DNA from: Granulicella sp.
GTDB taxonomy: Bacteria; Acidobacteriota; Terriglobia; Terriglobales; Acidobacteriaceae
Length of the DNA: 64,000 nucleotides
Direction: 5' to 3'
Assembly (NCBI GenBank): GCA_027339965.1
Contig: DAHWNL010000082.1
Span: 1 to 64,000, forward strand
In this document: positions 2,273-38,048 of the stretch, piece by piece
Layout: each line of letters starts with the position of its first letter
Position numbering within the stretch: position 1 is the first letter of the stretch
Translations under genes and position numbers: made by a program
The notes under the pieces: model-generated
Databases searched by the model: none
What the model was told of the DNA's origin: nothing
Seen by the model: only the letters and a program-made list of their open reading frames with translations

Positions 2273-2300
2273 AAAAAGCCCTGTCCCGAAGGACAGGGCT
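2273..2300 (-). terminator. Intrinsic terminator closing the phage late/lysis transcript
   Basis: AGCCCTGTCC-CGAA-GGACAGGGCT perfect 10-bp stem, followed by a T-run on the minus strand, downstream of the last phage gene. Confidence 0.8.
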
Positions 2301-2487
2301 CCGCCACTCACTGGCGGCTTCCACTCATCTGTTGCAGCTCGCTCGCTGGGTCAGCTTACCCGAGTCTGCCTCGTCATCTCTGGATCCATTCCACCGCTGC
2401 CGCCGCTGTCAGACTCCCTTCCCGGCGAACGCGGCGGGCCGACCCTACGGGAACAGACCGTCGGACCCGACCAGCGAAGCGCCCGCA

Positions 2488-2820
2488 TCATGCAATTCCC
2501 GAAGAGCGGACGATCTTTTGCTCCGCCTGCGCTCTCTCCAGATCTCCGGCCGCAGCCTTGGCTCCGTGGTCCTTCTGGAACAGGTTAAGCCCCGCGGAGA
2601 CGATCTTGCCAACCTCCTTGCTGAGCCCGTGGCCATCTTCGGAGTCGATTGCGGCGCGGGTTGAGATCGTCTCGTCGGGAGGACCGCCCAGCAGCGTATT
2701 CGCACACTGGTCAATCGCCACCAGCGATCGTTCCACAAAGCCTTCCTTGGCTACCTGTTGCTGTTCCACTCCAACCTGGGCAGGGGTCAGTGGAGTGATG
2801 GGATTGGACGGATTCTTCAT
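2488..2820 (-). CDS. Phage hypothetical protein (lysis-region family)
   Basis: LVAIDQCANTLLGGPPDETISTR resembles a recurrent small phage protein motif. ATG at 2820 is preceded by an AGGAGG-like RBS. Confidence 0.65.
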   Translation of the reverse strand: MKNPSNPITPLTPAQVGVEQQQVAKEGFVERSLVAIDQCANTLLGGPPDETISTRAAIDSEDGHGLSKEVGKIVSAGLNLFQKDHGAKAAAGDLERAQAEQKIVRSSGIA

Positions 2821-2827
2821 AAGCCTC

Positions 2828-3550
2828 CTATGGCACTCGGTTCTCAAACAGTTGCTGACCCCAGTAAAGTGGTTCCACCATCTCCAGGGCACCATGGATC
2901 ATCGGCCACGATCTACGCACCTTGCAGCCAAAAGTCCGGCAGGGCGACGGAAACAGAAATGCATGGAACTTGTGCTGAAAGTCGGTTGTCGTTGCGTCCA
3001 GGTTGTGGGTAACTTGCTGGGTTTCCTCCAGCGCGGCGGGAATCTCCGGACTCTCTAGCAGCGAATCAAAGTCCTGCAGAGACCGTTGCATCACCGCTTC
3101 GTCCGGTTGCAAACCCTTGGCCGATGCATCCAGATCCTGCGTAGCTGCATCGGCTGACTTCAGCACCGGCGCGATCCCCTCCGTGATGGATCGCAGCGAT
3201 GCTGCCGCGGCGTCAGAGGTCGCGCCGAGCGCATCCACCGTCTGGTTGACGTGCGGCGCAATCGTCCGCAGGCTCTCCATGGCGGCGATCACCTGCGGAG
3301 TTATCTGCTGCTCCTGAATCTGGCTTGTCGCGATCGCATCGCCGCCTTTGGTCACCGCTTTGGTAAAAGCCGCCAGCGTCCCGCAGGGGCCGGGAGCGCA
3401 GGAGCGGTTTACGGTCTCGAGGGCAACATTCGCCTGGGCCAGGGTCCGGTCCAGCGTGCGAACCAGAACCATTGCGCAGGCGGCCACCACCCCGCAGAGG
3501 GTGATGACCGCCAATGAGCCGGCAATCTGCGTGCGTTCAACGTGGGTCAT
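2828..3550 (-). CDS. Membrane-anchored coiled-coil protein, possible spanin-like lysis accessory
   Basis: N-terminal TM segment (GSLAVITLCGVVAACAMVLV), long Ala-rich helical body, two Cys pairs, located in the lysis cassette. Confidence 0.55.
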   Translation of the reverse strand: MTHVERTQIAGSLAVITLCGVVAACAMVLVRTLDRTLAQANVALETVNRSCAPGPCGTLAAFTKAVTKGGDAIATSQIQEQQITPQVIAAMESLRTIAPHVNQTVDALGATSDAAAASLRSITEGIAPVLKSADAATQDLDASAKGLQPDEAVMQRSLQDFDSLLESPEIPAALEETQQVTHNLDATTTDFQHKFHAFLFPSPCRTFGCKVRRSWPMIHGALEMVEPLYWGQQLFENRVP

Positions 3551-3559
3551 TGCGCACCG

Positions 3560-4024
3560 TCAGGCTGCGGCTCCGGCTGGGGCTCCAGCCGCGCCGGTGC
3601 TTGTCGTCGCTGGAACCGCATTGAGCAGCGCCGTAATCTCCGTGCTGATCACGTTGGTGTACTCTTCCACCTTGCTCACCAGGGAAGGATTGCTCACCCG
3701 AACCGCCGCCAGCAGGTTGGGAAGCTCCGCTTGGATGCCGCTCAATAGGCTCGGGAGGCTGGTTGCAGCGTTTACTGTCTTCACGGTCGCCAGCGCAGTA
3801 GCCAGGTCTGCTTTGATGCCGCCCAGAATAGCGTTCGCCTCCTCGCCCAGGGCTGCGCCGCCTCCAACAGTCAGAATCGTCACCACGATCGGCCCAAGGT
3901 AGGTCAACACTCCCTGTGCGATGGAAATCCAGCTCGGAGCCTCTCCGAACAACTTTTTGAAGGCTGCCTCGACCTTGGCTGCGAACGACTTCAAATCTGA
4001 GATTAGCTCGCCAAAAAAACTCAT
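3560..4024 (-). CDS. Phage amphipathic/membrane protein in the lysis cassette
   Basis: Strong RBS (GGAGGAG), amphipathic N-terminus and hydrophobic segment. Confidence 0.6.
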   Translation of the reverse strand: MSFFGELISDLKSFAAKVEAAFKKLFGEAPSWISIAQGVLTYLGPIVVTILTVGGGAALGEEANAILGGIKADLATALATVKTVNAATSLPSLLSGIQAELPNLLAAVRVSNPSLVSKVEEYTNVISTEITALLNAVPATTSTGAAGAPAGAAA

Positions 4025-4038
4025 CGTTTCTTCTCCTC

Positions 4039-4245
4039 CTACTGCATAGGGTTTGCGGTGACTTCACCGAAGTTATTTCTGCCCAGGCGCTGCCCGGTAA
4101 GGATTCCCGTACCGGTGCCCCCAAACGTCAAACCGAAACTCACCAGATCATGCCATCCAAAGCGCGAGCCCAGGCCGATCGTGGCTGCAGCGCCGAAGAT
4201 CAGCGCCAAGGCGATGATCTGTGTCTGCGTCTCCTTATCCTTCAT
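4039..4245 (-). CDS. Small two-TM protein, holin candidate
   Basis: 68 aa with two hydrophobic helices; ATGA overlap with the endolysin stop. Confidence 0.55.
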   Translation of the reverse strand: MKDKETQTQIIALALIFGAAATIGLGSRFGWHDLVSFGLTFGGTGTGILTGQRLGRNNFGEVTANPMQ

Positions 4246-5447: not shown

Positions 5448-6203
5448 TTAATAGCTGAAAGCACCCAGAATTGCTGTATAACTTGTGCCGTTCGAACTCG
5501 TCATGGCTCCTGTTGCCGAACTCACGATAGTGGTCGATGTATTCCACTCGCAAGCGGCATACGCACTGTCTGTCAGACTGGGTTGATCAACTGCGGCCAA
5601 TGTAGATTGGCTACCGGCCATATCTCCAGCGGAAGCAACTCCTACATGACCATTTACACAGAAGATGTTAATCGTAGGAGCGGCTGTCGAAGTGAACGAC
5701 CCGGAGGTATAGGAAGAAACGTTAGAAGAATTGCTGTTTGTGGAAGAAGTATTTAGTGTGACCGTGGGAGATAGGAACTCTAAAACAATCATCGATTGAT
5801 AGCCAGAATCGCTGGATGGTGTACAGGTGAATGTGCTTGTAGTTACTGGAGTCGACGCTCCAAGAACTAGATAGCTCATCTGCGCCGCGTTGTAGTAGGA
5901 TTCCGCAAGGGCTGTCACAATACTGAAAGAAGTGCTGTTGTAGTTGGCCACAACGGGGACCGTCGCCGCACTATTTTGTCCAGCACCGCAAAATGCTACC
6001 AGCAACTCATTAGGACCTATGTTCATTGCAGGGGTTGTCACCGAGGTACTGGCAGTTGATCCCGTATTTGACACATAGGTATAGCCTAACAAGGTAGGGG
6101 ACGTTGGGGCTGTTCCCAGCGATCCTCCAGTTAGAGACGGCCCCATATCCTGTCTTCCGGCCAGTAGCAACACACCCGCTAGCAGTACGCTCTTCCCGAT
6201 CAT
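5448..6203 (-). CDS. Ser/Thr-rich beta-strand phage protein with signal-peptide-like N-terminus (fibre-associated/adhesin)
   Basis: MIGKSVLLAGVLLLAG N-terminus; low GC; immediately follows the large fibre-like gene. Confidence 0.7.
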   Translation of the reverse strand: MIGKSVLLAGVLLLAGRQDMGPSLTGGSLGTAPTSPTLLGYTYVSNTGSTASTSVTTPAMNIGPNELLVAFCGAGQNSAATVPVVANYNSTSFSIVTALAESYYNAAQMSYLVLGASTPVTTSTFTCTPSSDSGYQSMIVLEFLSPTVTLNTSSTNSNSSNVSSYTSGSFTSTAAPTINIFCVNGHVGVASAGDMAGSQSTLAAVDQPSLTDSAYAACEWNTSTTIVSSATGAMTSSNGTSYTAILGAFSY

Positions 6204-6205
6204 AG

Positions 6206-9200
6206 CTACTCTACTCCAATCGAGAAGGTGATAGCGCTGTAGGTGATGGAGTTGGCCGTCTGGTTACAGACCTCCCACTCCGCGGTATTGGCTGCGCTAG
6301 GCCAGATGTGGAACACCATCCCTCCGACCGCTCCCCAACCTGTAAGAGAAGCCGGGTCTGAAGTATATCCGGAGGATATATGACTACCTGCGCCGCTGGT
6401 ATTCACGCCTGTGATGGTGACTGAAGCCGCAGTGGAACAGCTATTTGCCGTCTGGGTTCCGGAACTGACTGAAAGCGTGGTATCGTTTGGCATCACCACC
6501 GGAGTTCCATTCACCATAGGAGTTTGAGCAAAGTTCATCTGGCCAGTGGCGTTCGATGCAGTAAATAAGCCCTCAAAGGTTGTGCCGCTACCAATACTCA
6601 TCCCAACATTAGTTCCAGTGGCATACAGATTCACTGTGTTCGTCGAGGGAGTTTGGTTGTAGCCCTGAATAGCAGACGTCCCAAGAAGAATTACTGATGG
6701 AACCGCTGTATCTGGGCTTGCGCTTCCGGGAGAACCGCCTATGAAACTAATAGAAGCAGGCGCAACGGTTCCACCCACTGAGAGATTATTACCAATGTTG
6801 AAATAATCATTGATTGGATCTACTCTGAGCCATCTAGCACTTCCAGCATAGAAGAGATAATAAGGGGGAGTGTAAGTTCCAGGACCAGGATTACCTTCGC
6901 CCTCACAAATAATGCAGCCGTTTTCTGCGGGGGCCTGATACAAGGCGAAATCTTGAGTCCATGTTCCATTAGCCACTAACATGATGTTCCCTGGATTATT
7001 TGTTCCAGTTGCTCCATTGGAAACATTTATATTACTGCTTACCCATGCTGGGCCTTGATCCTGAAGAGTTAGTTGGGACTCGTTATTATAAGGAATACTA
7101 CCTTGACCATGCGTGTCGATGATATCACTCTCGCTATATACCGCGGCTGGAGCTTCGACTACAAAGTCCCCACTATTCCAAACTACTTGATTAGGTTGTA
7201 CAATCATGTTGTTTTCGTTGGACGAAGAACTTATAAAAGCCCCAGGATAGAAAGTGTACTCCGGGTAACCCATATTGATGGAGCAAGTTCCATCTGGACC
7301 CTCGTTAGCTCCAGTCTGTGCCCACCCTAGAGATTGGTTCTGGTTATCGTAGCTGTTAACGGTTATCGTATAGCTTCCGTTGAGGTCAGTGTCCACTGTA
7401 CAGCCAGCGACGTTTATTGTTTGCCCAATTGAAAAGTCGAAGATATTCATATAAGGACCGACATGTCCAGGAGGAGCACTTACCGATACAACATTATTTG
7501 TACGAGTCAGAGATACGCTAGCATTATATTGGAGCCCCGCATAGAGAAGTGCAGGAGTTGGGCTAGTTCCTTCTCCAATGCATCCTCCCACAACGCAGTT
7601 CGCAAGAAGAATCTGAGTTGTGGATGTTGCTCCGAGTACCTGATATGCCGCTGGCCAACCACTAGACCCTGATCCCCATGAATTGCTGTTTATAACAAAT
7701 TGACCACAAGGACCGCCCTGCATGATGGGAGAGTTAGATCCGCTCCATCCATGATAGGTAGTAAAAGTAATAGACTGGACGCCGCCACTAGCTGTTCCCA
7801 CGCTGATAATAGGGACTTCCTCTTGATACCATCCGGCCATGCAGGCATCTTCTCCGGCTACAAAACTCCCAGGAGACGCTGGACTTGTTCCCAGCGTTAT
7901 CTGACAGGTGTCTGTGGCGGGGGATAGATTATCCTGTCCGCCCGTAGCTGTGCATGTCCCCACGTTGCCCCATGCGGTGCTTTCTGTCACCGTGGTATTG
8001 CCTATATTGAAGGCGATAGAATCGTTCAAAATAGTTCCAGCGTTTGAGATGAAAGTAGCCTGAGGAGGAGTTGAATTCTGCATATCCAATAAAGTTCCAC
8101 CGGTAGCCCATTCCCATCCTGCTTGTCCCAAGCATCCTTGAGTGTGGCTCTCACAGGCGAAATTGGCTATAGCTAGAGTGGTCGAACCTTTTGTGGGCGC
8201 GGCGAGTTGTCCTTGCATAACAACCGACCCCGCATTTGGATACCCGCAGTCTGAAGTCTCTGTTGTAATTGGTCCCACTACAGGAAGACCTGTAGCGGTC
8301 GAGCATAGACCTTGAGCTGTTGTAAGACCTGGTGCAGAACCAGTTGGGACATAGACTCCCAGAGATTCACCTTGAACGATATTCACTGTTCCGAAATCAG
8401 CAGATGTGAAGGTCTGTGTCCCCGTTCCCGCTGCAAGCGTGATTGGAAGAACTTGATTGATGGTCGCATTGTTTCCAGTTCCGGGAGTCCAGACCACTAT
8501 ATAAGCAGGTCCGGCAGTGGCCGGAGTTTGAGCAAATGGAAGTGAGACGCTAGCAAGAACGCCTGATCCGGTGAAGGTCGAGTTACCACTATTGGCTCCA
8601 TCGAGCAGGAAGGTAACGCCGCTTGGACCTCCACTATAGGCTTCATATAATTCACCGACCGTGGGAGTCGTTAGATTCCCCTGAAAGTATCCCACCTGCT
8701 GCGGTTTGATATTAATGCCAGCCAATCCTTCATCGGAGCCGAAGTAAGCTCCGCCATAGAAGAGCAAATATGCATACTGCCAAGCGGCATCTCCAACCTT
8801 CAAATCGGTAAAGTTGCCGCTGATTCCGTGGTCGATTCCGGGAGAATTATTGAGAAAGTCGATGTTGAGGGCGGTGTGTCCGGCCCAGGGACCGTTGTTG
8901 TTGTAATAACCGGGACCACTCCCATTGAATTGCAAGCCAAGGTTTGTTAGAGGGGTCGCTAAGGTTGTTCCACGGTAATTCACTGTAGCGCCAAAGCTAC
9001 TGTTGGTCTGCGTGACATGTTGCGAGACGGAGGAGGCACCCATGATGCAGTCGCCACTCGCGCAGCTTCCATTGAAGGTGAAGGTGTTGCCGGTCTGACT
9101 CACGCCGCTGCCGGTCAGGGTGATATTCCCATTCACCGAACTCGACGGTCCGGTGATCGAGTTCACCAACGGGCCCGCCAGGGAAGAGTTCGGAATGGCG

Positions 9201-9724
9201 CTCGCGCTCACCGCCAGCGTCGGAGTGGTCGTCGCCGAGGTGACGGTTGGCGTCAGCCAGCTTGGCCAGCTCCCCGTGTCAAAGTTCGTCAGCGTGCCGC
9301 CGCTGTTGGTAATCGTGAAGGTGCTTCCCGACTGCGAGACGGCGTTTCCGGTAAGATACACGGTTCCAGTGGTGATGCCAGAGGGCCCCTGGATCGCGCT
9401 CACGCCGCTTCCAGCCGTGGCGCAGTTGGCCGCGCTAACCGTCCAGACGCCGTCGTTCTCCGCAGGGCAGCCGGTGAGTCCCTCGGTGTCAAGACCGAAG
9501 CCGCCGTTGCTAACCGGCAGAACGCCCTTCACCTGCGGACCCAGGTTGATGGCTTGTGCCGCCGCTGACTGCGCGCATCCGTAGCCAAACAGCAGTGCCA
9601 CGCTGGCCGCCAGACTGAGCAGAACTCTGTTCAAGGGCTGCTTCGCTCTCCAGATCAGGGAAGCAAAGCAGGCGCCGCAAATCCGGCCCCGCTCCGAACG
9701 TTCTCTAAAGAAGTCCAAACGCAT
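6206..9724 (-). CDS. Large tail-fibre/adhesin-like protein
   Basis: Fibre repeat INLGPQVKGVLPVSNGG, duplicated GPS..G...LTG..VSQ.G.TFT unit, G/S/T-rich. Start is ATG 9724 (AGGAG RBS) or TTG 9634. Confidence 0.75.
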   Translation of the reverse strand: MRLDFFRERSERGRICGACFASLIWRAKQPLNRVLLSLAASVALLFGYGCAQSAAAQAINLGPQVKGVLPVSNGGFGLDTEGLTGCPAENDGVWTVSAANCATAGSGVSAIQGPSGITTGTVYLTGNAVSQSGSTFTITNSGGTLTNFDTGSWPSWLTPTVTSATTTPTLAVSASAIPNSSLAGPLVNSITGPSSSVNGNITLTGSGVSQTGNTFTFNGSCASGDCIMGASSVSQHVTQTNSSFGATVNYRGTTLATPLTNLGLQFNGSGPGYYNNNGPWAGHTALNIDFLNNSPGIDHGISGNFTDLKVGDAAWQYAYLLFYGGAYFGSDEGLAGINIKPQQVGYFQGNLTTPTVGELYEAYSGGPSGVTFLLDGANSGNSTFTGSGVLASVSLPFAQTPATAGPAYIVVWTPGTGNNATINQVLPITLAAGTGTQTFTSADFGTVNIVQGESLGVYVPTGSAPGLTTAQGLCSTATGLPVVGPITTETSDCGYPNAGSVVMQGQLAAPTKGSTTLAIANFACESHTQGCLGQAGWEWATGGTLLDMQNSTPPQATFISNAGTILNDSIAFNIGNTTVTESTAWGNVGTCTATGGQDNLSPATDTCQITLGTSPASPGSFVAGEDACMAGWYQEEVPIISVGTASGGVQSITFTTYHGWSGSNSPIMQGGPCGQFVINSNSWGSGSSGWPAAYQVLGATSTTQILLANCVVGGCIGEGTSPTPALLYAGLQYNASVSLTRTNNVVSVSAPPGHVGPYMNIFDFSIGQTINVAGCTVDTDLNGSYTITVNSYDNQNQSLGWAQTGANEGPDGTCSINMGYPEYTFYPGAFISSSSNENNMIVQPNQVVWNSGDFVVEAPAAVYSESDIIDTHGQGSIPYNNESQLTLQDQGPAWVSSNINVSNGATGTNNPGNIMLVANGTWTQDFALYQAPAENGCIICEGEGNPGPGTYTPPYYLFYAGSARWLRVDPINDYFNIGNNLSVGGTVAPASISFIGGSPGSASPDTAVPSVILLGTSAIQGYNQTPSTNTVNLYATGTNVGMSIGSGTTFEGLFTASNATGQMNFAQTPMVNGTPVVMPNDTTLSVSSGTQTANSCSTAASVTITGVNTSGAGSHISSGYTSDPASLTGWGAVGGMVFHIWPSAANTAEWEVCNQTANSITYSAITFSIGVE

Positions 9725-10220
9725 AGAGCACATCTCCTGGTTGTGGGGCCACGGCCAGCGTGATGGTGAATAGCCCGTTGATGATCGCCGTCGTATATCC
9801 CACACCCTCCACCAAAACGGCGGAGTTGTATTGGAGGATCAACAGGGTTGACGGAGCAACCGTCAATGTGAAAACCGTATTCGTTCCATTGATGGTCCCT
9901 GCCGGCGACTGCGCGAACGGCGTCACCCCGGTTCCAGCGCCTCCGGACAAGCTCTGGTCCGGGTAGACCTGCTGCACGATCTCCGGCGCCTGCACCACCA
10001 TCGTATACAGCTGCGTGTTGTCCAGATAACAGCCGATCTGCCCCAGTCCATCGGTCTCCTGCGGATTGGGTGCAGGTGTCCCGCTGGTATCGCTGTACAC
10101 GCTGGCCAGCGGAGTCAGCGTCGCCACATTGGCCGGCTGGGTGAGGAAGTACACCTGGGCTCCGGCGATCGCCTGCCCCTGCGCGGTTTGCACCACGCGG
10201 TCGATTCGTGTGATGGCCAT
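9705..10220 (-). CDS. Phage tail/fibre-attachment protein
   Basis: N-terminal GQAIAGAQVY...NPQETDGLG (tailspike head-binding/CarboxypepD_reg-like); C-terminal GTINGTNTVFTL...AP.PGD.L phage repeat. Confidence 0.7.
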   Translation of the reverse strand: MAITRIDRVVQTAQGQAIAGAQVYFLTQPANVATLTPLASVYSDTSGTPAPNPQETDGLGQIGCYLDNTQLYTMVVQAPEIVQQVYPDQSLSGGAGTGVTPFAQSPAGTINGTNTVFTLTVAPSTLLILQYNSAVLVEGVGYTTAIINGLFTITLAVAPQPGDVLYAFGLL

Positions 10221-10223
10221 CGA

Positions 10224-10913: not shown

Positions 10914-11043
10914 ATCTGCTCCTTAAAATCGAAGTGCCCCGCGCCGGGGCGGTTGTCTTCGGCTCCTACTCAGGGGTGCTTGCCGCCCCGGAACGCTACC
11001 AGGTCGGGGGAGTGCTCTCCATGTTCAGGTAGAGATCGATTCT

Positions 11044-28133: not shown

Positions 28134-28140
28134 GACGAAC

Positions 28141-28422: not shown

Positions 28423-28683
28423 AGCTTCTTCTTCCCCTTGCGGTTCAGAAAGGGTAGCACACCCTGTCCATAGCCGAGCTCTCTCAAGACAGTTCAAAAA
28501 GCGCAAAGCTGCGGCGGATGGCAACCGCATGGCTCTTGACGCGGCACCGTATGGGGAGGTCGTTCCACGAGCACCGTCCTTCGTCATTCCAGATGGACTG
28601 AAGATGCTGACATCATTTTACTCTGCTGCGGGTTGGTCGGTGCCGTTTCGGCTTTTTCCGCAGCGTGAACACCGCCTGCGTGT

Positions 28684-29548: not shown

Positions 29549-31099
29549 TCAAAGCTCCCAGTACGGTCGAACCGTGTTCTTCCGGCTGCGCCGCTCGGTC
29601 TCGGCCAGGCGGATAAAGTGTCTTTCGCGCTCGGTGGGCGCGGCCTCAATCTGCAGGCGCACCTGATCCTCATGGCGCATCTTCGCCGGCGAGCCCAGGA
29701 TGTGATAGATCCCGTAGCCGGCGCCCTGCAGCGGATCGTCGCCCAGAAAGCCGGCGATCTTCTCCTGGTGCACATCGTCGCGCGGGGCCATCTTGATGCA
29801 CTCGATCAGCCGCGGGCACTCGCTGGAGATGATCCAGTTGGCCCGCTGGATCGGCGCGCCCTCGGCGGTCTTGCCCACCGTCACGCGGCGGCGCAGCATG
29901 TTGTACATGGTCTGCTCGCGCCCCAGCTTATCGCTGCCCGCATTCATGGGCATGGGTAAAGGATACTGGCGCAGGATGCGGCCCATGCGCATGGCCACGC
30001 TGTTGGGGTTGGCCCCATAGCTCTTGGTGGTCTGGTCGGCAAAGGCGTCGTGGGAAAAGGGAAAGCTGACGAAGCTGGGCATCCGGCCGTCCTCGTCCAG
30101 GCTCTCGCGGATGATCATCTCGGCCAGCATCTCCGGGTCGTGATGCTTTACCAGCCGCTCCTTGCAGGTGCGCACCACGCCAAAGTCATCCATGGAGTGC
30201 CAGTAGATGGCCGCCCAGTGCTCAAAGCCCCAGTCGCCGGAGATCCAGCGCCGATGCCAGGGCTGAGCCACGCACTCGCTGGGATCGCAGACGTTCTCGG
30301 CCTCGTCAAAGGCGCCGTAGAAGTAGCCGCCCACCACGTCCCACACGCCGAACTGCATGGCCTCGCGAATGGCCTTGGGGTAGCTCTCCAGGTTGCGCAG
30401 AAAGCTGGGATCGCTGGCGTAGATCGGGTTGTCCAGGTAGGTGCAAGGGAAGTAGGCGTAGTCGGCGGGGTTGTAGGCGCGCCGCTGATCCTCATCCATC
30501 TCATCGCAGGGTTTGTGCTCTACAAACACCTTGCGCACCCAGGGAGCGCCCACGCCGATAGGGTTGCCCGCGCCATCCTTGGTGCAGTACGGATCCACCG
30601 GGCAGCGGTTCCAGGCCGCGGTGGCGTTCCACTGCTCAAAGGTGAACTCGCACAGCTCGTCGTAGAAGATCTTGCGCCACTGCCCCTGATAGCTCCAGGC
30701 ATCGTGCTCATGCTGCATGGAACCGAAGACGGTGGTGGCTCCGTTGAGCCAGGTCACGGTGCGCCGTCCGGAGCCGGACAGGCTCTTGTACAGCTCGCGT
30801 GGCACCAGCTCCTGAAAGCGGGTGAGCAGGGTGCTCTCCAGCATCGGCTGCGTGCGGCGCAGCATCAGCGTGTGGACGTGCGGGGCCACGTCCGGCGAGA
30901 ACTCATTGCAGCTCACCATGTGTTCCACGATGCCGCAGGCGGTCTTGCCCGGCCCCGCCGCTCCGCCCAGAAAGTTGAACGGGGCCACCGAGCCGTGGAA
31001 GAGCCGCTGCTTGGGATAGGGACTGTAACGCTGCTTGAAGTTGATCCTGAGCAACTTCTGATGAAAGTCCTCGGCAAATCGTTCTACGCCGGTCTGCAT
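29549..31099 (-). CDS. Terminase large subunit
   Basis: YPKQ Q-motif, Walker A GGAAGPGKT, Walker B IFYDE, coupling motif AGNP, RNase H-like SGDWG and GDD. Confidence 0.93.
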   Translation of the reverse strand: MQTGVERFAEDFHQKLLRINFKQRYSPYPKQRLFHGSVAPFNFLGGAAGPGKTACGIVEHMVSCNEFSPDVAPHVHTLMLRRTQPMLESTLLTRFQELVPRELYKSLSGSGRRTVTWLNGATTVFGSMQHEHDAWSYQGQWRKIFYDELCEFTFEQWNATAAWNRCPVDPYCTKDGAGNPIGVGAPWVRKVFVEHKPCDEMDEDQRRAYNPADYAYFPCTYLDNPIYASDPSFLRNLESYPKAIREAMQFGVWDVVGGYFYGAFDEAENVCDPSECVAQPWHRRWISGDWGFEHWAAIYWHSMDDFGVVRTCKERLVKHHDPEMLAEMIIRESLDEDGRMPSFVSFPFSHDAFADQTTKSYGANPNSVAMRMGRILRQYPLPMPMNAGSDKLGREQTMYNMLRRRVTVGKTAEGAPIQRANWIISSECPRLIECIKMAPRDDVHQEKIAGFLGDDPLQGAGYGIYHILGSPAKMRHEDQVRLQIEAAPTERERHFIRLAETERRSRKNTVRPYWEL

Positions 31100-31162
31100 T
31101 CGCTCTCCTGCGTCTGTGTTCTCGCGCCGTCCGCGCCGGCTTCGGGCTGGCACCGGGATCGG

Positions 31163-31882
31163 TCAGCCCTGTTGGGGGTCCGACCGGCGTTGCGGGCGCG
31201 GTACATCGTGGATGAGCTGTACGCCCAGCGTTCCAGAGTGCTCCACACGTTCCGTGAACAGGCGAAGATACCGGCCCAGCATCTCCAGGCTTTTGAGTTT
31301 GTCGGCCAGCTTGATCTTCTTCATCTCGCCGCCGTCCTGCATCTGGCGAAGATCCAGTCCGGCGATCGCCGCGGCTTCATCCTCGCCCATCTGGCCGGGC
31401 GGGAGCAGGTTGCCGTTGGCGTCGAAGATCCGGCGAGGATCGAAGAAGGCCAGCTTGGCCATCTCGTCCAGGACGCGCTCGGCGGTGATCTCGCGCCTGG
31501 CCATCTCCTTCTGCGCCTGCTCGGCAACGATGCGGGCCAGCTTCGGGTTGCGGGCGAGGCGTGAGGATTGATGGGCCGCGGTGGACTCGCTGTAGCCGGC
31601 AGCGCGCGCTGCGCGCGAGGCGTTGAATCCGTTGCCGAGATACTCGGCGACAAACAGGCGCTGGCGGAGCGACAGGGAGTCCAGCTCGGCGCGCAGGTCG
31701 TCGGGAAGCTCGACGGCCTGGCTTTGATCTTTACCTGCGGCGAGGCTCTGGTCTGGGCTCGCCGCCGTGCTCTGTTCTCTTCCAGCGGCGAGGCTCTGCT
31801 GTTTGCCTGCGGCGCGGCCCCGGCGGCGCGCAGCCTTCATCGCGGCGTCTTTGGCTGCGTCTTTCCGCGCTTTGGAGTTCAT
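31163..31882 (-). CDS. Terminase small subunit (Terminase_2-like)
   Basis: RQRLFVAEYL..FNASRAARAAGYS...ITAERVLDEMAKLAF...KIKLADKLKSLEMLGRYL.LF. Confidence 0.92.
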   Translation of the reverse strand: MNSKARKDAAKDAAMKAARRRGRAAGKQQSLAAGREQSTAASPDQSLAAGKDQSQAVELPDDLRAELDSLSLRQRLFVAEYLGNGFNASRAARAAGYSESTAAHQSSRLARNPKLARIVAEQAQKEMARREITAERVLDEMAKLAFFDPRRIFDANGNLLPPGQMGEDEAAAIAGLDLRQMQDGGEMKKIKLADKLKSLEMLGRYLRLFTERVEHSGTLGVQLIHDVPRPQRRSDPQQG

Positions 31883-31883: not shown

Positions 31884-32444
31884 TCAACCTTTCCCGACCC
31901 CCGCCAGATCCACGCGCAGGCTGGGGGCTTTGGTGGTGACGCGGAAGCAGGCGCGCACCAGCTCGCTCACCCGGTTGCGGATTCTTGCAGGGAGCTCCAG
32001 CGCGCGCAGCACATCGTCCGGGCCCTTCACAATGTGGTAGCTCACCTGGCGGGTGAAGAAGCGCTCCGCCGCGCCCTCCGGCAGGTTCTTCTCCAGGTAA
32101 CCGCGGAAGGCCTCACAGGCGGCGTCATCCATCTGCACCAGGGTTCCGGTGGTGGCCACGGCGCAGTGATGCAGGCCCTGCAGACGGCGGCTCTTGCTGG
32201 TGGAATGGACGCCGTAGGCTTCAATCCACTCCAGCAGCTTCGCCTTGCGCTCGTCACAGGTCTCCTGGAGCGAGCGCTGCACGTCTCTTTGCTGGAGCAG
32301 CGAGCTTTGCAGAGCGGCGTACTCTTCAATCAGCGCGTCGATCTGGCGCGGCGCGGGCGGCTGGCTGGGCGGCTGGCTGGGCGCAGGCCGACCGGGGGAC
32401 AAAGCGGGAGTATCTGGGGACAAAACAGGTGTGCCTGGGGTCAT
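31884..32444 (-). CDS. Helical phage protein, Mu Gam-like architecture
   Basis: N-terminal coiled coil, then KSRRL beta segment; the resemblance is weak. Confidence 0.45.
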   Translation of the reverse strand: MTPGTPVLSPDTPALSPGRPAPSQPPSQPPAPRQIDALIEEYAALQSSLLQQRDVQRSLQETCDERKAKLLEWIEAYGVHSTSKSRRLQGLHHCAVATTGTLVQMDDAACEAFRGYLEKNLPEGAAERFFTRQVSYHIVKGPDDVLRALELPARIRNRVSELVRACFRVTTKAPSLRVDLAGVGKG

Positions 32445-32464
32445 CGTCTCTCTCCGGTGAAGCA

Positions 32465-32836
32465 TCAGGCGGAGCGGCGCAGCAGGTAGGCCGCAGCAGC
32501 GGCGAGCGCGGCGTGGGGGACGGCAGCCTGGGAGCCGCATGCGGCTGCGGCCGGCTGGGCAGAGGGCTGGCGGCGCGGGCGGCCAACCAGCGTCAGCTTC
32601 TTCTGCCGCTGCGCCTCCTTCTCCATCTCCTCGCGCATGGCGGCGCGATACTGGCGCTCGGCGCGGGCTCGCTCCGGATCTTCCTTCCACTGCTCGCAGG
32701 GCGCATGCTCGGCTTCAGCCTCTTCGCGCTGGGAGAGCATGGCCTCCGGGTCGCGCAGCATGCGCCGCGGAATCTCGACGCACTCTCCGCAAAGGGTGCA
32801 CTCCAGACACTGGTCCCGGTCATTCATTCGGATCAT
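32465..32836 (-). CDS. Small Zn-binding phage protein
   Basis: CLECTLCGEC...H..C; ATGA coupling. Confidence 0.55.
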   Translation of the reverse strand: MIRMNDRDQCLECTLCGECVEIPRRMLRDPEAMLSQREEAEAEHAPCEQWKEDPERARAERQYRAAMREEMEKEAQRQKKLTLVGRPRRQPSAQPAAAACGSQAAVPHAALAAAAAYLLRRSA

Positions 32837-33591
32837 GCGGCGACGCTCCTGGCGCTTCCCGCCTGCGCCTGTCCTGCTTGCGGGTGGTTGCTGCGCGAGT
32901 GCTGGACTCGCCGTGGATCGGCCGGCTGGAGTGGGAGCGAGCCGGAGAGGGAGGGGGATTGCGCGTCCTGGGTCGAGGGCAGGATGCAGAAGCTGCTGGA
33001 GCGCCAGGCAGCGCGCTCGCGTTCCAGCACCGCCGCCCCCACAAACGTCAGCCGCCACAGACGCCAGATCTTGCTGCGCATGTCGCGTACATGGCCGCCG
33101 ACCATCTCAAAGCTCATACCCAGAGAGCCCGCGCCCCGCTCCGCATCCTCGCGGGCCGCGCGAGCGACGATCTCCGGGAAGTCCCGGGCGTAGACCAGGC
33201 CGCGCACGCGAAGCTGCTTGCCGTGGATGGCGGCCGCGGTGATGATCCCGGCCTTCTGCCGGGGATTGTGGCCGCTCCAGTCATCTCGGAAGTTCACCGC
33301 CATGCCGATCAGGCTGGGCAGCGCCGCGGCAACGGCCTCGCGCGACAGAATGATGCGATGGCCGCGAGCGCCATCCGGAGCCTTGTCGCTGGGCGTCTCG
33401 ATCAGGGTGAGCACGCCTTCAAAGGCCGCCCGGTTCGGATGCAGCGCCACCTCCGGCAGCGCCGCCAGCGCCGCCTCCGGCACGGCCGGCGAGGGGTCGC
33501 CCGCGGAGCGGCCGGCGGCAGCGCATGGGGATGCGGCGGCAGCGCCTGCGGGTGAGCCGAGGGGAGCGTTCACGAGCGCTCCAACTCGCAC
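32833..33591 (-). CDS. Prohead (HK97/assemblin-fold) serine protease-like protein
   Basis: FEGVLT, His in WSGHN, GLVYARDFP, catalytic-Ser motif LGMSFE, LTFVGAAVL..RAAW. Confidence 0.65.
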   Translation of the reverse strand: MRVGALVNAPLGSPAGAAAASPCAAAGRSAGDPSPAVPEAALAALPEVALHPNRAAFEGVLTLIETPSDKAPDGARGHRIILSREAVAAALPSLIGMAVNFRDDWSGHNPRQKAGIITAAAIHGKQLRVRGLVYARDFPEIVARAAREDAERGAGSLGMSFEMVGGHVRDMRSKIWRLWRLTFVGAAVLERERAAWRSSSFCILPSTQDAQSPSLSGSLPLQPADPRRVQHSRSNHPQAGQAQAGSARSVAA

Positions 33592-34202
33592 GCGGCGAGG
33601 CCGGCTTGGTCCTGTCCGCTGCGCCTTTGTCTCCCCGGTAAGCAGGTTTCTTCCGGCGCTCCATGCCCGCCTGCTGCTTCTGGCGGTCTTTGTCCTTTTT
33701 TCTTCTCTGTTTCTGTTTGTCTCCGCCGGCCGGCTGCGTGGAGCAGGTTCTCCGCCACACGCCGGTCCTCAGCCGAGATTCTGGGCCGCACCGCCACCGC
33801 CTTGGTGTCGCCAATCAGCGGCCAGACCTTGAAGCGCAGCACCTCCGCGCGCTGCCGTCGCGTCAGCCGCTGCCGGCCGTCGGCGGCCAGGGCGACGGCG
33901 TGGGTGGTGGCCACGGTAAGGGTGCAGGGCGTGGGGTGCTCCCAGTTGGTGGGCTGCAGCGCCCGTATGCCCACAGGCTGCACCTGCAGCTCGCCCTGCG
34001 GCGTGGCTACCTCGCGGGAGACCCAGACCGCCTCGCCGCCATCGACCATGGCCTGCGCCTGGCGCGCGGAGATCAGGCGGAAACTCCACTCCGTCCAGCG
34101 CTCGCTGGGCTGAATGTAGGCAAAGTGCGCCACCATCCGGCTGTAAGGGTTCACGGCTCGCTGGGCAGGCGCAGAGGGCCGGCGGCGTTGGCGTCTACGC
34201 AT
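33570..34202 (-). CDS. First late-operon gene, hypothetical
   Basis: ATG 34202 with GGGAG RBS; globular core (WSFRLIS...WPLIGDTKAVAVRPR). Confidence 0.55.
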   Translation of the reverse strand: MRRRQRRRPSAPAQRAVNPYSRMVAHFAYIQPSERWTEWSFRLISARQAQAMVDGGEAVWVSREVATPQGELQVQPVGIRALQPTNWEHPTPCTLTVATTHAVALAADGRQRLTRRQRAEVLRFKVWPLIGDTKAVAVRPRISAEDRRVAENLLHAAGRRRQTETEKKKGQRPPEAAGGHGAPEETCLPGRQRRSGQDQAGLAACELERS

Positions 34203-34335
34203 GGCATCTCCCGGGCAGGGTCGGTGGAAGGTTCGTTGAAGCCGCGGAGGGACGCTGCGCGGAGATTGCGAGCGCAGCGCGCCGGGGCGCAGCCGAGCGC
34301 CCCGGCGCAAGGGCCCAGCGCAGGACTGCCAAGAC

Positions 34336-34359
34336 AAAACCCCATGGCGGGCCATGGGG
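34336..34359 (-). terminator. Intrinsic terminator within the late-operon leader
   Basis: CCCCATGG-CGGG-CCATGGGG stem followed by TTTTGTCTT on the minus strand. Confidence 0.6.
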
Positions 34360-34759
34360 CTGCGGAGAGCGACGTGAGATGAGGAGGGCAGCGGTAGCAC
34401 CGGCGTGCGCGTCCAGCCCGGGAAGGCAGCCCAACGCAAGCCCGGCGCGAAATGCAAGCCCAGGGCTGGATGCACCCTCAAGGCTGTGCGGCCCGTCTGC
34501 GGACACACCTCGGCGTCCCAGGGGTGGCCTGCTCAGAGTGAGGTCCGTCGTTATCCGGCTGGGAAGCGGCTTCGCCTGCCGGGCGCACTCGATTCGATTG
34601 TGGGGAGGTGATGTGGGCGGTGGAAGAGCGGATCTGGGTGGGTGGTGTCTTGTGTTCTCGGTTGCCTTGCGGCTGTTGCCCGGCCGGCTGCGGTTTGTGG
34701 CCCGCAGACCTTTGGGGGTCGCACACCCTTGTTCTTTATGCTCAAAAGAAGCTAGGCTA

Positions 34760-35067: not shown

Positions 35068-36750
35068 TCAGCCTGGCGCGGCGCGCGGCTCGGCTTCCAG
35101 CACAGCGCGGACCCACAGCGGCGCCTCCTGCGCGTAGATAGGCACGCCTCGCTGGCGCATTCGCCGCCAGTAGCCGAGCGCGGCTTGCCGCTGTTCTGCC
35201 TCACGCCGCTCCGTCTCGCTCATCCCTGCCTGGCTCTGCTCGGTTGCTTGCCGCGCGGCTCCGCGCCGGGGGGGCGCGCTGGGCTCGCCGCTTTCCAGCC
35301 GTGCGGTCTCCTGGACGGGGGCTGGGGAATCTGCAGCGCTGCGGCAGGTTTGTACGCTGCGGCAGGCTGCGGCACCGCGCCAGCTCTCCATGTTGCAGCA
35401 GCTTGTTGCGCTGCGCAGGATGCCGGGCTCGCGATAGCGCTCGGCCTGCGCAGCGGCTGCCAGACCCGGAGCGCCGTGGCGGCCCTGCGGCGGCATGACT
35501 TGCGCTCGGCGCGGCCAGGCCTCCGGCTCAGCCCACAGGCCGTCGCCAAAGAACCGGGAGAATCCCCACTGGATCTGCAGCTCCTGACGCCGGCACAGCT
35601 CGCGATACTGTCGCCAACGCTCCACCATGCGCGCGGCCAGGGCCTGCAGCGCGCGCTCTGCGGGCGGCGCAGGGCAGCCCTGTTGCGCGGCGTCCGCACC
35701 TGTCGGCACCCGGGCGGCGCATCGCATCGCCAGCTCGAACTGGCGGTTGAGCAGCGACTCCAGCCGCCGGGTCGCGGAGACGCCACTCTGCTCGAGCACC
35801 CAGCGCGCGGCCCCGACGAACGCAGAGAGCTGGAGCGCCGGCTCCGGCTGGCTGGCGGCCGAGCTCCCAATCCCCGCCGAACCACCCGGCCCCCCTTGGG
35901 GGGTGGGGGGGGTGTGGCTGTCTTCTCTCTCTGGTTCTTTCTTTAAAAGATGGAAGGATATCCCCGGTTGGGACACCAGAGCGCTCTGCTGGGACACCGC
36001 AGCCGCAGGCTGGGACACCGGATCGCTCTGCTGGGATACCAGTGCGTCGAGCTGGGACAAGGACGTCTCGGCGGGCGTCTCGCAGCCAGCCTGGGCGGCA
36101 GCCTTGCAAGCAGCGTCCAGGGCCGGCTCCGATGGGCCTGGGACTGAACCAACCGCAGGAAACAGCGTCGGCGCCAGATCAAGCTGCGCCGGAGCTGGCA
36201 TCGAGCCAACGGATGCGGAGGAGACCTTCGCCTGGATGCTCCTTTGGCTGTGCAGTTCGGCCAGGCGGCGGCGCAGCTCCGGCTCGCCCACCCTCGCCAG
36301 CTCGCGCAACGCCACGAGCTGGTAAGCCGAAGGTCGCCGGCTGGAGCCTTTGCTCTCCAGCACCATCCCCAACTGCACCAGCTCGCGCAGCTTGCGGTGC
36401 GCCGTGGAGCGGGAGACGCAGCTCTCCCGCGCCAGCGCCTCCACGGTCACCGGCAGCTCGGCCCGCGCCGCCGCCAGCGGCGCCAGCCGGGTCATGGCCA
36501 CGTAGACCATCCCGCCCTCCGGGCCGATCAGGGGCAGAAACACCCGGAAGAACTCATGCTCAACGTAACACCAGCCGCCCTGGCTGGTGCTGCGCAGGTC
36601 GGCGTTGCGCACACCCGCGCGAAAACCCGCTCCAAGGCCCGCGCCAGCGTCTCCCCGCGGGCCGCCGCGTCCTCTAGGCGGACGATCGGCCTTGGGGCCG
36701 CCCAGCCCGTAGCCGCCCGGCTCCTGGCCGCTGCTCCAGGCGCTCGTCAT
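35068..36750 (-). CDS. Phage replication initiator (N-terminal wHTH, lambda O/DnaD-like architecture)
   Basis: wHTH TVEALARESCVSRSTAHRKLRELVQLGMV, internal iteron-coded repeats, TPPTPQGG linker, C-terminal WGFSRFFGDGLW. Confidence 0.75.
   Translation of the reverse strand: MTSAWSSGQEPGGYGLGGPKADRPPRGRGGPRGDAGAGLGAGFRAGVRNADLRSTSQGGWCYVEHEFFRVFLPLIGPEGGMVYVAMTRLAPLAAARAELPVTVEALARESCVSRSTAHRKLRELVQLGMVLESKGSSRRPSAYQLVALRELARVGEPELRRRLAELHSQRSIQAKVSSASVGSMPAPAQLDLAPTLFPAVGSVPGPSEPALDAACKAAAQAGCETPAETSLSQLDALVSQQSDPVSQPAAAVSQQSALVSQPGISFHLLKKEPEREDSHTPPTPQGGPGGSAGIGSSAASQPEPALQLSAFVGAARWVLEQSGVSATRRLESLLNRQFELAMRCAARVPTGADAAQQGCPAPPAERALQALAARMVERWRQYRELCRRQELQIQWGFSRFFGDGLWAEPEAWPRRAQVMPPQGRHGAPGLAAAAQAERYREPGILRSATSCCNMESWRGAAACRSVQTCRSAADSPAPVQETARLESGEPSAPPRRGAARQATEQSQAGMSETERREAEQRQAALGYWRRMRQRGVPIYAQEAPLWVRAVLEAEPRAAPG
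35969..36060. repeat. Five iterons at exact 21-bp spacing (putative ori inside the rep gene)
   Basis: TGGGACACC at 35969, 35990 and 36011, TGGGATACC at 36032, TGGGACAA at 36053; AT-rich TTCTTTCTTTAAAAGA next to them. Confidence 0.8.
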
Positions 36751-36854
36751 GCCACCACCACCGCCAGCAGCGCCGCCGACAAAGCCAGCAGCCACCAAAG
36801 GGACCGCCTCAGTTCCTCACTCACACTACGCTCCTAAACCTGATATGCAATTGA

Positions 36855-36883
36855 ATAGTCGTACGTATTAGACAATTTGTCAA
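36855..36883 (-). promoter_or_regulatory. Putative early promoter for rep
   Basis: TTGACA-17 bp-GACTAT in an AT-rich patch; the -10 is weak. Confidence 0.5.
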
Positions 36884-37144
36884 GCGCATGCCTGCGCATA
36901 GAGCCAAATTTGACTCAACAAGCAATAAAAGAGAGTGCACTTGAGGAAAGCGGCGTACGCCTTTGGTCACATGGCCTCGAACACACAGGAGGTCTCTTTA
37001 CCCGCGAGAGGATCTGGAGATCGCCGCGGGTCGGTTGCAGTGGGCGCCGGCCGGGGGATAAGGCCGGAAGCCATGGCCAGGCGTGGCCAGCAGCGGCGGC
37101 AGAAGGGAGTGGCAGGAGGGTTCTGGGCTTGCCGCCTGGGGTGG

Positions 37145-37262
37145 ACAAGCAGCTTTCGTGTTGCCGGGCATCCCGAACAGGGCTTGCAGCGGCGTTTTCC
37201 TGGGGGGAGAAACGCCTATCGAAGTTCAGGTACCCTCTCCATCGGCACGGAAGGTGCTTTTA
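37145..37262. repeat. ~117-bp MITE-like palindromic element, copy A
   Basis: Clearly homologous to 45787-45902; ends on the TAA stop of the repressor gene. Confidence 0.75.
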
Positions 37263-37898
37263 GCGTCTGCGGTACTGCCGGTGCTCCACCATCACTCCGG
37301 CGATGCGCAGCGCCAGCCGGTCGGACCGCAGCGGAGCGTGCAGCGCATTGAGGGGGACCAGTTCGAAGACGTCGATGCCGTTCTCATTGATGCCGGCGCT
37401 GCGATACTGGCGGAAGCTCGCCTCTCCGCTCGGTTCCGTAGCCACCACAAAGTCCCCTGGCGAGGGTTGAAGGGTGGGGTCGATCACCACCATATCTCCG
37501 GGCTGGAACCTGGGCTCCATCGAATCGCCCTTGATACGCATCGCAAATGTGCTCGGCGGATGCTCTAGATCGGTCACAATGCTCTCCCGTGGCTCCTCAT
37601 CTTTTGGGCGGTCTGCGGAGGCGGTCCATCGGCCGATCTGTTCGTAGTCGAGCACCGGTATCCTTCGCCATCCCAGAGGAACTTCCTCGACGTTACTCCG
37701 GCTGCCGGATGCATACAAAACATCGACGGAGACTCCCAGCGCCCCGGCGATCTTCAGCAGGGTCTCGCGGCTGTAATAGGCGCCCCGCTCCACCCGGGAG
37801 AGAAAGGGCCCCGAGATCCCCGCCAGCGTGGCCAGCTTCGTCACCGTCCATCCCAGACGCTCTCTGCGCTTCCTGATCTCCGAACCGATGTCTGCCAT
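37260..37898 (-). CDS. CI/LexA-like repressor (XRE HTH + S24 domain), autocleavage residues substituted
   Basis: HTH IRKRRERLGWTVTKLATLAGISGPFLSRVERG; GDSMEP Ser retained; EQIG in place of VQAG; ASFRQY in place of ATFKKY. Confidence 0.9.
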   Translation of the reverse strand: MADIGSEIRKRRERLGWTVTKLATLAGISGPFLSRVERGAYYSRETLLKIAGALGVSVDVLYASGSRSNVEEVPLGWRRIPVLDYEQIGRWTASADRPKDEEPRESIVTDLEHPPSTFAMRIKGDSMEPRFQPGDMVVIDPTLQPSPGDFVVATEPSGEASFRQYRSAGINENGIDVFELVPLNALHAPLRSDRLALRIAGVMVEHRQYRRR

Positions 37899-38048
37899 GC
37901 ATTGATTGTGAGTGCATAGTCTTACCTGATATTACTTATTACGTATTATTTTTGCCATACGCAATGTGCCGTACCGGATCGGGACCAAGATTGGGAATCG
38001 TGCCGATCTCCGCTCGCGTGGCGAGCCCGAGGAGGGAGTTCCTCGAAT

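Follow-up and report, generated by a model that had tools for sequence, protein, structure and literature searches.

Is the phage-like gene block near the start of contig C12 of a Granulicella genome a prophage that can still leave the chromosome, a remnant in decay, or an element that its host lineage has kept? The stretch analysed here (the window) is the first 64 kb (64,000 nucleotides, nt) of this contig (79,638 bases), which belongs to a genome, G000, of 3.8 Mb in 88 contigs. The prophage-like block fills window positions 2272-37999 (~35.7 kb). All of its credible open reading frames (ORFs) lie on the minus strand and nearly abut, so the one-way orientation that an initial annotation had reported, repressor included, stands. 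That annotation took the block for a domesticated podovirus-derived particle system. The gene content of the block, its losses, its distribution, the selection on its genes and their co-divergence with the host make us lean, if modestly, towards a 'grounded' temperate phage of the short-tailed (P22/SU10/N4-adaptor) type that has been retained by a host lineage. We thus keep the core of the earlier proposal, a grounded, host-retained, podovirus-like element, but not its strict immobility.

Of the boundaries first proposed (2273-37950), the left one holds, at a terminator-like hairpin, and the right one moves to 37999. There the element ends in a conserved terminus, GATYGGGAAC-N3-ATYGGGAATC, which lies ~101 nt upstream of the repressor start in all six copies that we found and occurs once in the G000 genome.

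Six of the seven species of one Acidobacteriaceae clade carry the element

We searched 60 other genomes for the large terminase gene (terL) and 101 genomes of the genus for two host markers, a SurA-like peptidyl-prolyl isomerase (PPIase; C48:3844-5811) and a PfkB kinase (C37:3474-4466); the tallies include the unpublished genomes G041, G046-G048, G050, G052 and G081, on which none of our conclusions depends. terL was found at 90-94% amino acid (aa) identity in four of the 60 (G005, G007, G009 and G019), and the weaker terminase matches in 20 further genomes (≤34% identity) belong to other phages. A DNA search added G067, and the whole element is present in these five relatives at 77-97% identity. 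Host-marker identity to G000 is 87-96% for G005, G096 and G067 and 77-87% for G019, G007 and G009, with all other genomes at ≤76%. The Acidobacteriaceae clade thus delimited has seven species; six of these, namely G000 and the five relatives, carry the element, and the seventh is G096.

In each of the five other species the module stands without an integrase, and its left flank is syntenic in at least four genomes, in line with the host-maintained element that had been envisaged. In G007 and G009 the hairpin and pfkB are 570 nt apart, G096 has the order pfkB, a GH16 gene, sulfatase and element end, and in G005 and G067 pfkB and sulfatase share a contig that stops short of the element. The left flank in G000 is likewise the sulfatase gene (214-1827); because of the G096 order, we consider contigs C37 and C12 of G000 to be neighbours, split by a repeat at contig ends. 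PPIase and pfkB are 60-170 kb apart in three outgroup genomes, which places the element at a synteny breakpoint. The initial annotation had named an empty site, or a near-identical phage with an integrase, as signs of an ordinary decaying prophage. No clean empty site was found in the clade, where G096 shows a remnant, and the only integrase-bearing relatives stand at ≤77% terL or 61% repressor identity.

The G009 copy carries two inserts of cargo. One, of 7.5 kb, directly follows terL (L013, G009:C30 4427-11520) and encodes a CMD-family protein and an OEP-HlyD-ABC ATPase-ABC-2 permease efflux operon; the other, of 2.4 kb, lies beside the capsid gene (L012 15527-17100) and encodes a PIN-domain protein and a ClpP-like SDH protease. 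Such inserted cargo fits long chromosomal residence, to which the host repeat inside the element also points, and poorly fits a self-packaging genome. In G019 a putative 420-aa membrane transporter gene lies beside the left end and agrees with long residence as well; it was tried as a marker of an empty site in G000:C48 and rejected, as the protein is not homologous to that of the C48 gene.

The lysogeny arm and repressor self-cleavage are derived losses

Two hallmarks of a functional temperate prophage, a site-specific recombinase and attachment (att) sites, were not found. No Pfam recombinase was detected in 33 chosen stop-to-stop frames of ≥70 aa, covering both strands of 31.8-38.1 kb and the left end. 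A six-frame whole-genome search at E≤1 returned ten matches for PF00589, none for PF00239 and seven for PF00665, none of them on C12; as a control, these searches gave matches in 14, 13 and 11 of 14 genomes, respectively. Among the four genomes with both ends assembled, no direct repeat of ≥8 nt was consistent enough to be an att core, and no inverted copy of the right terminus occurs at the left end. The window holds no tRNA gene; the nearest, for tRNA-Met, was found in G007, G009 and G019, where host genes separate it from the element end, ~4.6 kb away. Profile searches of C12, repeat comparison and tRNA scan thus bear out the earlier statement that no integrase, att repeat or flanking tRNA is recognisable.

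The ancestral state is indicated by two integrase-bearing relatives in IMG/VR. The record behind locus L069 (terL 77%) has a tyrosine integrase, an HTH_17 gene, a divergent HTH_3 gene beside an S24 repressor and then an HTH_36/DnaD_N initiator, in an early region of 11.4 kb compared with 6.1 kb in the element; its repressor was matched at the DNA level only (66%). In the record behind L091 (repressor 61%, by tblastn) a tyrosine integrase is likewise encoded, and a divergent HTH_3 gene begins 103 nt away from the repressor. With the element these relatives share gene order and late transcription in one direction, a homologous terL (77%), a homologous repressor and an initiator of the HTH_36 type. 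Unlike the element, they encode a tyrosine integrase and have a cro-like gene in divergent orientation as well as HTH_17 or other small genes, and their repressors retain both the Ala-Gly site and the catalytic Lys. The clade copies end where the divergent cro-like gene of the relatives begins, in an alignment that is weak at this point.

Both relatives have an intact Val-Gln-Ala-Gly and Phe-Lys-Gln-Tyr in their repressors. In G000 the catalytic Ser (GDSM) is kept, Lys is replaced by Arg, and the Ala-Gly site has become Ile-Gly. All six clade copies have Ile-Gly, Val-Ser or Val-Gly together with Phe-Arg-Gln-Tyr, with Gly-Asp-Ser-Met retained, and the identity of the lost Lys was confirmed against the aligned UmuD residues. 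The claim that the repressor lacks its autocleavage residues was therefore two-thirds right: Lys and the Ala-Gly site are gone and Ser remains. From these residues, the RecA-stimulated self-cleavage that characterises functional lambdoid or P22-like prophages would appear to be absent. Since the relatives keep both the int/xis/cro arm and repressor self-cleavage and none of the six copies has either, the two losses are derived and common to the six.

Scanning IMG/VR for the right-terminus pattern gave 11 loci, none related to the element, and a metagenome scan with the repressor gave two loci, one of them at 61% identity on a 2-kb contig. The motif GATYGGGAAYC was dropped as an operator candidate, as its seven matches in the window, against 4.2 expected, are no enrichment. 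A Mu-like transposable phage was also rejected: C12 has no rve/DDE match, there is no terminal inverted repeat, the terminus is unique, and the element has an iteron/initiator origin instead.

Elsewhere in G000, a tyrosine recombinase gene (C48:571-1032) lies beside a tRNA-Met gene (near C48:1215-1305), ~2.5 kb from the PPIase gene. Host genes separate it from the element, and it probably belongs to another integrated element.

Late genes diverge with the host under purifying selection

Ratios of nonsynonymous to synonymous divergence (dN/dS) were estimated by the Nei-Gojobori method (NG86) from tblastn-derived codon alignments of 33 element genes and three host genes, to which more host ORFs were added. 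Antisense shadow ORFs (dN/dS >0.45) were dropped from the host sets (four of the 11 added ORFs), also in the G007-G009 comparison. In the late genes dN/dS is 0.03-0.3, far below 1: for example, 0.03-0.05 for the capsid candidate, 0.04-0.11 for terL, 0.08-0.12 for the portal candidate and 0.08-0.14 for the adaptor. Divergence between copies matches host divergence. Relative to G000, dS of the late genes and of the host, respectively, is ~0.06-0.19 and 0.08-0.19 for G067, 0.13-0.40 and 0.28-0.39 for G005, 0.44-1.03 and 0.54 (one gene) for G019, 0.66-1.21 and 0.71-0.97 for G007, and 0.67-1.25 and 0.78-1.12 for G009. The nine in-frame stops that were flagged all fall in over-extended N-termini or near the C-terminal end, and no conserved frame is broken. 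Parity of dS, low dN/dS, intact frames and retained iterons are together the signature that long chromosomal co-inheritance under purifying selection would leave.

This pattern bears directly on whether the block is simply a defective prophage, useless to phage and host alike, whose erosion has not yet begun. Decay would account for the lost integrase arm, for the deletion of the G096 copy down to a remnant, and for the insertion of host repeats and cargo. With dN/dS of 0.03-0.3 over dS of up to ~1 in six species, with frames intact and iterons kept, we regard it as highly improbable.

A number of observations pull against a grounded, vertically inherited element. The late modules of G007 and G009 share 96-97% identity (dS 0.05-0.25, ~0.11), compared with dS of 0.20-0.61 (~0.37) in eight flanking host genes. 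The initiator/repressor end (79-85% identity), terS (87%) and the fibres (71-77%) have diverged further than these flanks. The late module is ~3 times younger than its flanks and has therefore moved between these lineages after their split. To the right of the terminus lie at least three sequences with no relation to one another: the PPIase gene in G007, G009 and G019, a GntR regulator and biotin genes in G000 (from 38104), and in G005 ~790 nt of dispersed repeats followed by a C37:27985-like segment, behind which a single inversion could lie; G067 has the first ~28 nt and a repeat copy in common with G000. G096 (84% complete) has no match to window 3650-38200 at E 1e-20. Its syntenic locus holds a 355-nt remnant (window 2301-2655) that adjoins the sulfatase gene on one side and host two-component and efflux genes on the other. 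A second left end of the element (window 2244-3649), with a different flank, lies where a contig stops. The comparisons also have limits: host dS comes from few genes (one for G019; three for G067, one of them partial), every genome is a metagenome bin broken into many contigs, the assemblies of G005 and G067 do not span the left junction, and the link between C37 and C12 in G000 was drawn by inference. As most element proteins have no family match, a recombinase could have gone unrecognised. Lastly, repressor, initiator and origin are all retained in the element, and described gene transfer agents (GTAs) have none of these.

Much of this would suit an ordinary active temperate podovirus that integrates and excises by means of a novel recombinase, encoded by one of the ORFs of no known family, or of host recombinases, and whose repeated re-integration at the same site in close hosts mimics vertical inheritance. 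The young late module of G007 and G009, the identical terminus beside differing right flanks, the second left end in G096 and the many ORFs of no known family are all compatible with it; the mosaic of fibres, terS and initiator is that of circulating phages, and working phages with non-cleavable repressors that are induced through antirepressors are known. However, no recombinase family appears at E≤1 on the contig or in the early-region frames scanned, att-like direct repeats and terminal inverted repeats are missing, and the loss of int, xis and cro coincides with that of the cleavage residues in all six copies. Moreover, each of the five comparisons with G000 gives a dS on a par with that of the host, G009 holds ~10 kb of host-type cargo inside its packaging and head modules, and contig-level data from four metagenome runs show 1:1 coverage and no alternative joint at 38000. 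An active phage is thus, in our view, rather unlikely. For the grounded phage that we prefer, the word 'immobile' is only partly apt: the integrase arm is gone and dS mostly follows the host, but the young G007/G009 late module, the differing right flanks and the second left end in G096 do not agree with it.

Metagenome contigs show an integrated majority state

The stretch or part of it is contained in 17 metagenome runs from six studies, none of them RNA. We examined Logan contigs, which give contig-level depth only, of four runs from four studies. Element and flank are equally deep in all four (for example, 33-35 vs 33-34 in run X2 and 13.5-14 vs 14 in X6), and contigs bridge the right junction at 38000 in three studies. 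No alternative joint was found there in the four runs; the joints listed had sides of <30 letters and were treated as noise. Local amplification, for which the initial annotation had suggested a coverage peak, was not seen in these four metagenomes at contig level. Because contigs cannot reveal minor forms, a stable integrated majority state is all that depth and bridging show.

Packaging, virion and lysis genes suggest a short-tailed particle

Gene families were assigned by Pfam and PHROG searches (Table 1); the other proteins had no match even at PHROG E≤5. The core morphogenesis and lysis set of the initial annotation fared unevenly. terS, terL, the co-chaperonin and the endolysin are assigned by family and the adaptor by fold, the portal is a lead, and capsid, scaffold, nozzle and fibre are putative labels given from gene order, composition and conservation.

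Table 1. Features of the element and its ends, in window coordinates
Feature	Position	Strand	Basis and remarks
Terminator-like hairpin	2272..2309	-	Left boundary; kept in G007, G009, G019 and G096:C218 copies, sequence beyond it leftward differs
Last gene, 135 aa	2488..2895	-	PHROG 3342, E 1.4e-8; dN/dS 0.15-0.22; 355-nt remnant of this end in G096
Three small lysis-associated ORFs (240, 154, 68 aa), putative holin/spanin roles	2828..4245	-	Hydrophobic segments; dN/dS 0.06-0.22; no family match
Endolysin (phage lysozyme)	4242..4703	-	PF00959, E 2.8e-45; PHROG 7
Holin-like ORF (putative), 187 aa	4703..5266	-	C-terminal hydrophobic helix; dN/dS of conserved part 0.06-0.36
Putative fibre/receptor-binding module (251 aa + 1199 aa), low GC	5448..9805	-	GC 0.49-0.53; swapped between copies
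Four conserved virion ORFs (171, 229, 198, 196 aa)	9705..12565	-	dN/dS 0.03-0.17; no family match
Tail protein, 1313 aa, beta-rich; nozzle or spike candidate, not tape measure	12562..16503	-	Composition
Head-to-tail adaptor, 273 aa, short-tailed-phage type	16893..17714	-	AF2 pLDDT 85 and Foldseek
Virion-module protein, 285 aa	17799..18656	-	Conserved; invariant C220, C223, H234, C244 in 49 homologues
GroES/Cpn10-like co-chaperonin	19364..19783	-	PF00166, E 4e-7; PHROG 3188
Major capsid protein candidate, 453 aa	20012..21373	-	Position after scaffold-like gene
Scaffold candidate, 581 aa, acidic, helical	21523..23268	-	Position and composition; dN/dS 0.13-0.25
Portal candidate, 915 aa	23973..26720	-	Viral clusters as neighbours in the ESM Atlas (score 0.95-0.97), some of them carrying P22_portal or SU10_portal
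Variable small ORFs between terL and portal	26779..29106	-	Three of them (27340-28587) only in G005 and G067 copies; in G009 the efflux operon lies at the edge of this gap nearest terL
Large terminase terL	29549..31153	-	PF03237 and PHROG 979, E 1.8e-19; 91-96% aa identity in five other copies
Small terminase terS	31163..31882	-	PF03592, E 1.7e-28
Three conserved early ORFs (~190, 235, 200 aa in conserved parts)	31884..34508	-	Frame plot; conserved in G007, G009, G019
Replication initiator, winged helix-turn-helix (HTH), lambda O/DnaD-like by organisation	35068..36798	-	HTH_IclR and HTH_36 matches; origin within gene
Iteron array	35966..36070	.	Four overlapping 42-nt units inside initiator gene
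Dispersed host repeat inside element	37154..37225 (feature entry to 37260)	.	Found 79 more times in G000 and many times in G019, G005, G067
HTH + S24 repressor	37260..37898	-	PF00717, PF01381, PHROG 4; dN/dS 0.10-0.16
Promoter/operator-like AT-rich region	37899..37999	.	Ends in the conserved right terminus

The strongest structural match is that of the adaptor, whose model matched, in a Foldseek search of the PDB, the adaptors of A4, Moo19, GP4, VP1, N4, SU10 and crAss001 (E 1e-7 to 5e-4, best probability 1.0), with T7 gp11 weaker. No tape measure candidate, that is, no long helical ORF, was found between the capsid candidate and the lysis genes, where the 1313- and 1199-aa proteins are beta-rich, and tube and sheath families are without a match among the element proteins (Pfam, PHROG E≤5). 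A short-tailed virion is supported by the adaptor fold together with this lack of a tape-measure-like ORF and the beta-rich large downstream proteins. With an adaptor of the T7 gp11/N4/SU10 type and neither tape measure, tube nor sheath, the predicted particle would have the podovirus morphotype.

Other virion proteins are assigned less directly. The portal candidate has no Pfam match and nothing significant in a PDB sequence search. The capsid candidate, at 96-99% aa identity in G005, G007, G009 and G019, has no family match and no significant PDB sequence match; it also occurs at loci L085-L088, whose records are metagenome bins of Acidobacteria, Acidobacteriaceae or Granulicella sp. For the 285-aa protein an AF2 model (pLDDT 88) found no PDB match with Foldseek at E≤0.001, and this protein may represent an undescribed virion protein fold. 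The 1313-aa tail protein has a dN/dS of 0.09-0.13 over its full length in G007, G009 and G019, and the Q/A/G-rich 198-aa protein downstream is putatively ejection protein-like.

The fibre module stands apart from its surroundings. As noted initially, the guanine-plus-cytosine (GC) fraction of the backbone (0.62-0.70) is like that of the flanks (0.59-0.70). That of the fibre region is 0.49-0.53. The fibres have 47-79% aa identity between copies and saturated dS, compared with 83-100% identity in adjacent genes. Swapping of a module with foreign GC recalls specificity switching in tailocins, and the block might thus be a domesticated killer or defence element: its particles would kill competitors (tailocin/PBSX-like), or it would act through lysis-mediated release or superinfection immunity, with gene transfer not the selected function. 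Purifying selection on virion, lysis and repressor genes would agree with this, as would accessory or defence-like inserts such as the PIN/protease pair in G009. Yet terS, terL, the portal candidate and the origin are under selection as well, and a DNA-free killer particle would not need them, so that we judge this explanation clearly unlikely.

Homologues of the adaptor were collected as 112 clusters, and 58 sequences were aligned. Many homologues, at 36-71% identity, lie on contigs of 44-48 kb, which suggests that complete genomes of the relatives may be ~9-12 kb longer than the 35.7-kb element.

Proposed replication in situ and headful packaging

An origin within the initiator gene is the arrangement of lambda O. 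A motif scan of G000 found five CTGGGAYACC-like cores at 21-nt spacing (starts 35968-36052) and three phased cores each in G005, G007, G009 and G019; at least three are thus kept in all five copies in which the region is assembled. The initiator counterparts in relatives contain HTH_36, and one also has DnaD_N. Four fully aligned copies of the initiator have 44-60% aa identity and a dN/dS of 0.36-0.48.

We propose the following history for a grounded phage. The ancestor would have carried a canonical lysogeny arm, with a tyrosine integrase, an excisionase-like HTH protein and an SOS-cleavable S24 repressor, next to whose gene a cro-like gene lay in divergent orientation. In the copy of the clade's common ancestor this arm would have been lost, as would the Ala-Gly site and the catalytic Lys of the repressor. 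Afterwards the block would mostly have been inherited with the chromosome beside the pfkB/sulfatase locus, with repressor, iterons, packaging, virion and lysis genes under purifying selection; fibres, initiator and small accessory genes would have been exchanged, and host cargo and host repeats would have accumulated.

In a present-day cell, relief of the repressor by a trigger other than RecA would allow the initiator to fire the iteron origin in situ. By analogy with P22, as described in excerpts of PMC8575938, a pac site is expected within terS. With no excision, the terminase would begin at this site and fill heads in one direction only, passing along the late genes and on into host DNA of the left flank, and lysis would release short-tailed particles with element DNA and adjacent host DNA. 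Such an element would parallel, in nature, locked-in P22 prophages and lateral transduction. Going further, we tentatively raise the possibility, doubtful as it is, of a naturally locked-in podovirus co-opted as a chromosomal gene-mobilisation engine in Acidobacteriaceae. Through amplification in situ, headful packaging into the pfkB-side flank and homologous recombination, host DNA would pass from one related species to another, and so would the late module. Both the co-divergence across the clade and the young late module that G007 and G009 share would then be accounted for.

Three further early ORFs lie between terS and the initiator, with no Pfam match in the frames scanned. One 252-aa early protein (32833-33591) has an H-containing segment and a GMSFE motif but matches no Pfam or PHROG family. 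We presume a resemblance to HK97-type prohead proteases, for which a position upstream of terS would be unusual.

Relation to locked-in prophages, GTAs and grounded prophages

Locked-in P22 prophages were reportedly described by Youderian in 1988, and domesticated defective prophages are said to have been described by Bobay et al. in 2014. The tail of RcGTA is siphovirus-like, whereas the adaptor of our element is of the short-tailed type.

According to the excerpts of PMC8575938, locked-in (int/xis-defective) P22 prophages are replicated in situ, and headful packaging is set in one direction by the pac site, which lies in terS. The P22-like and staphylococcal prophages of lateral transduction treated there resemble the element in their headful-type terS/terL beside a short-tailed virion module. 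As in locked-in P22, we have a non-excising prophage with its own origin, for which replication in situ and one-way packaging into host DNA are predicted. In contrast to those laboratory mutants, or that transient phase of excision-competent phages, the locked state of the element is natural, present in six species and old (dS up to ~1). Its proteins have no detectable sequence similarity to P22, and packaging type, pac site and transduction are here predictions.

GTAs (RcGTA-type, BaGTA, VSH-1 and Dd1), as outlined in parts of PMC11841831 and PMC10883770, are also integrase-less phage-derived head/tail/lysis clusters with vertical inheritance in a clade, purifying selection and host co-divergence. 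The element shares with them the lack of integrase and excision functions and chromosomal fixation as well as, apart from the G007/G009 late module, vertical inheritance and purifying selection. It differs in having replication and immunity genes of its own, where a GTA is under the control of host regulators, and on this count it does not qualify as a GTA. Particle production and GTA-like packaging of essentially random host DNA are hypothetical for it. A GTA cluster is larger than head capacity, and this one, at ~35.7 kb, may not be.

Grounded or domesticated defective prophages, in the portion of PMC6379469 that covers them, are similar in mobility loss, long vertical retention, purifying selection and use as a site for cargo and recombinational renovation. 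Most known cases are partial enterobacterial remnants, whereas this element keeps a near-complete late, lysis and replication set across Acidobacteriaceae species. Prophages have been reported in Acidobacteria (PMC5900883, in part), and the literature surveyed, mainly titles and abstracts, mentions neither a domesticated particle of podovirus type nor a GTA from Acidobacteria.

Good descriptions of domesticated phage particles exist for few lineages only, and Acidobacteria are a dominant soil phylum. The element may represent a dated intermediate between temperate phage and GTA, in which mobility and SOS coupling are gone and the genes for replication, immunity, packaging, virion and lysis are still selected in several species. 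If adjacent host DNA is indeed packaged, it would be a natural lateral-transduction system maintained by a host lineage. It also calls for caution with prophage callers, as it would score as an intact prophage, yet no excision route was found in the searches made here.

Repeats and flanking DNA

Three families of dispersed repeats were observed in the window: ~75 nt (37154-37225; 79 other copies), ~55 nt (38028-38086; eight) and 150 nt (window 1-150). The first confirms the host-type repeat that had been reported inside the element. The 150-nt repeat is present at several contig ends (C25, C65 and C87) and is the probable cause of the assembly break there.

To the right of the element, 38104-44000 encodes a GntR regulator, bioB, an aminotransferase and other biotin-synthesis genes, at a GC of 0.67-0.71. 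In the clade, window 38.1-41 kb is matched by short repeats but by no DNA of gene length, and a ~100-nt segment is found in more distant genomes; across 60 genomes of the genus, this part has no gene-length DNA match save one at 66% identity. The GntR/biotin stretch (38104-44000) may be a separately acquired island. Adjoining the PPIase locus, G000:C48:7730-10092 encodes a BsuBI/PstI-type restriction endonuclease and an Eco57I-type methylase. The remainder of the window (44-64 kb) is core host DNA, found on other contigs in relatives.

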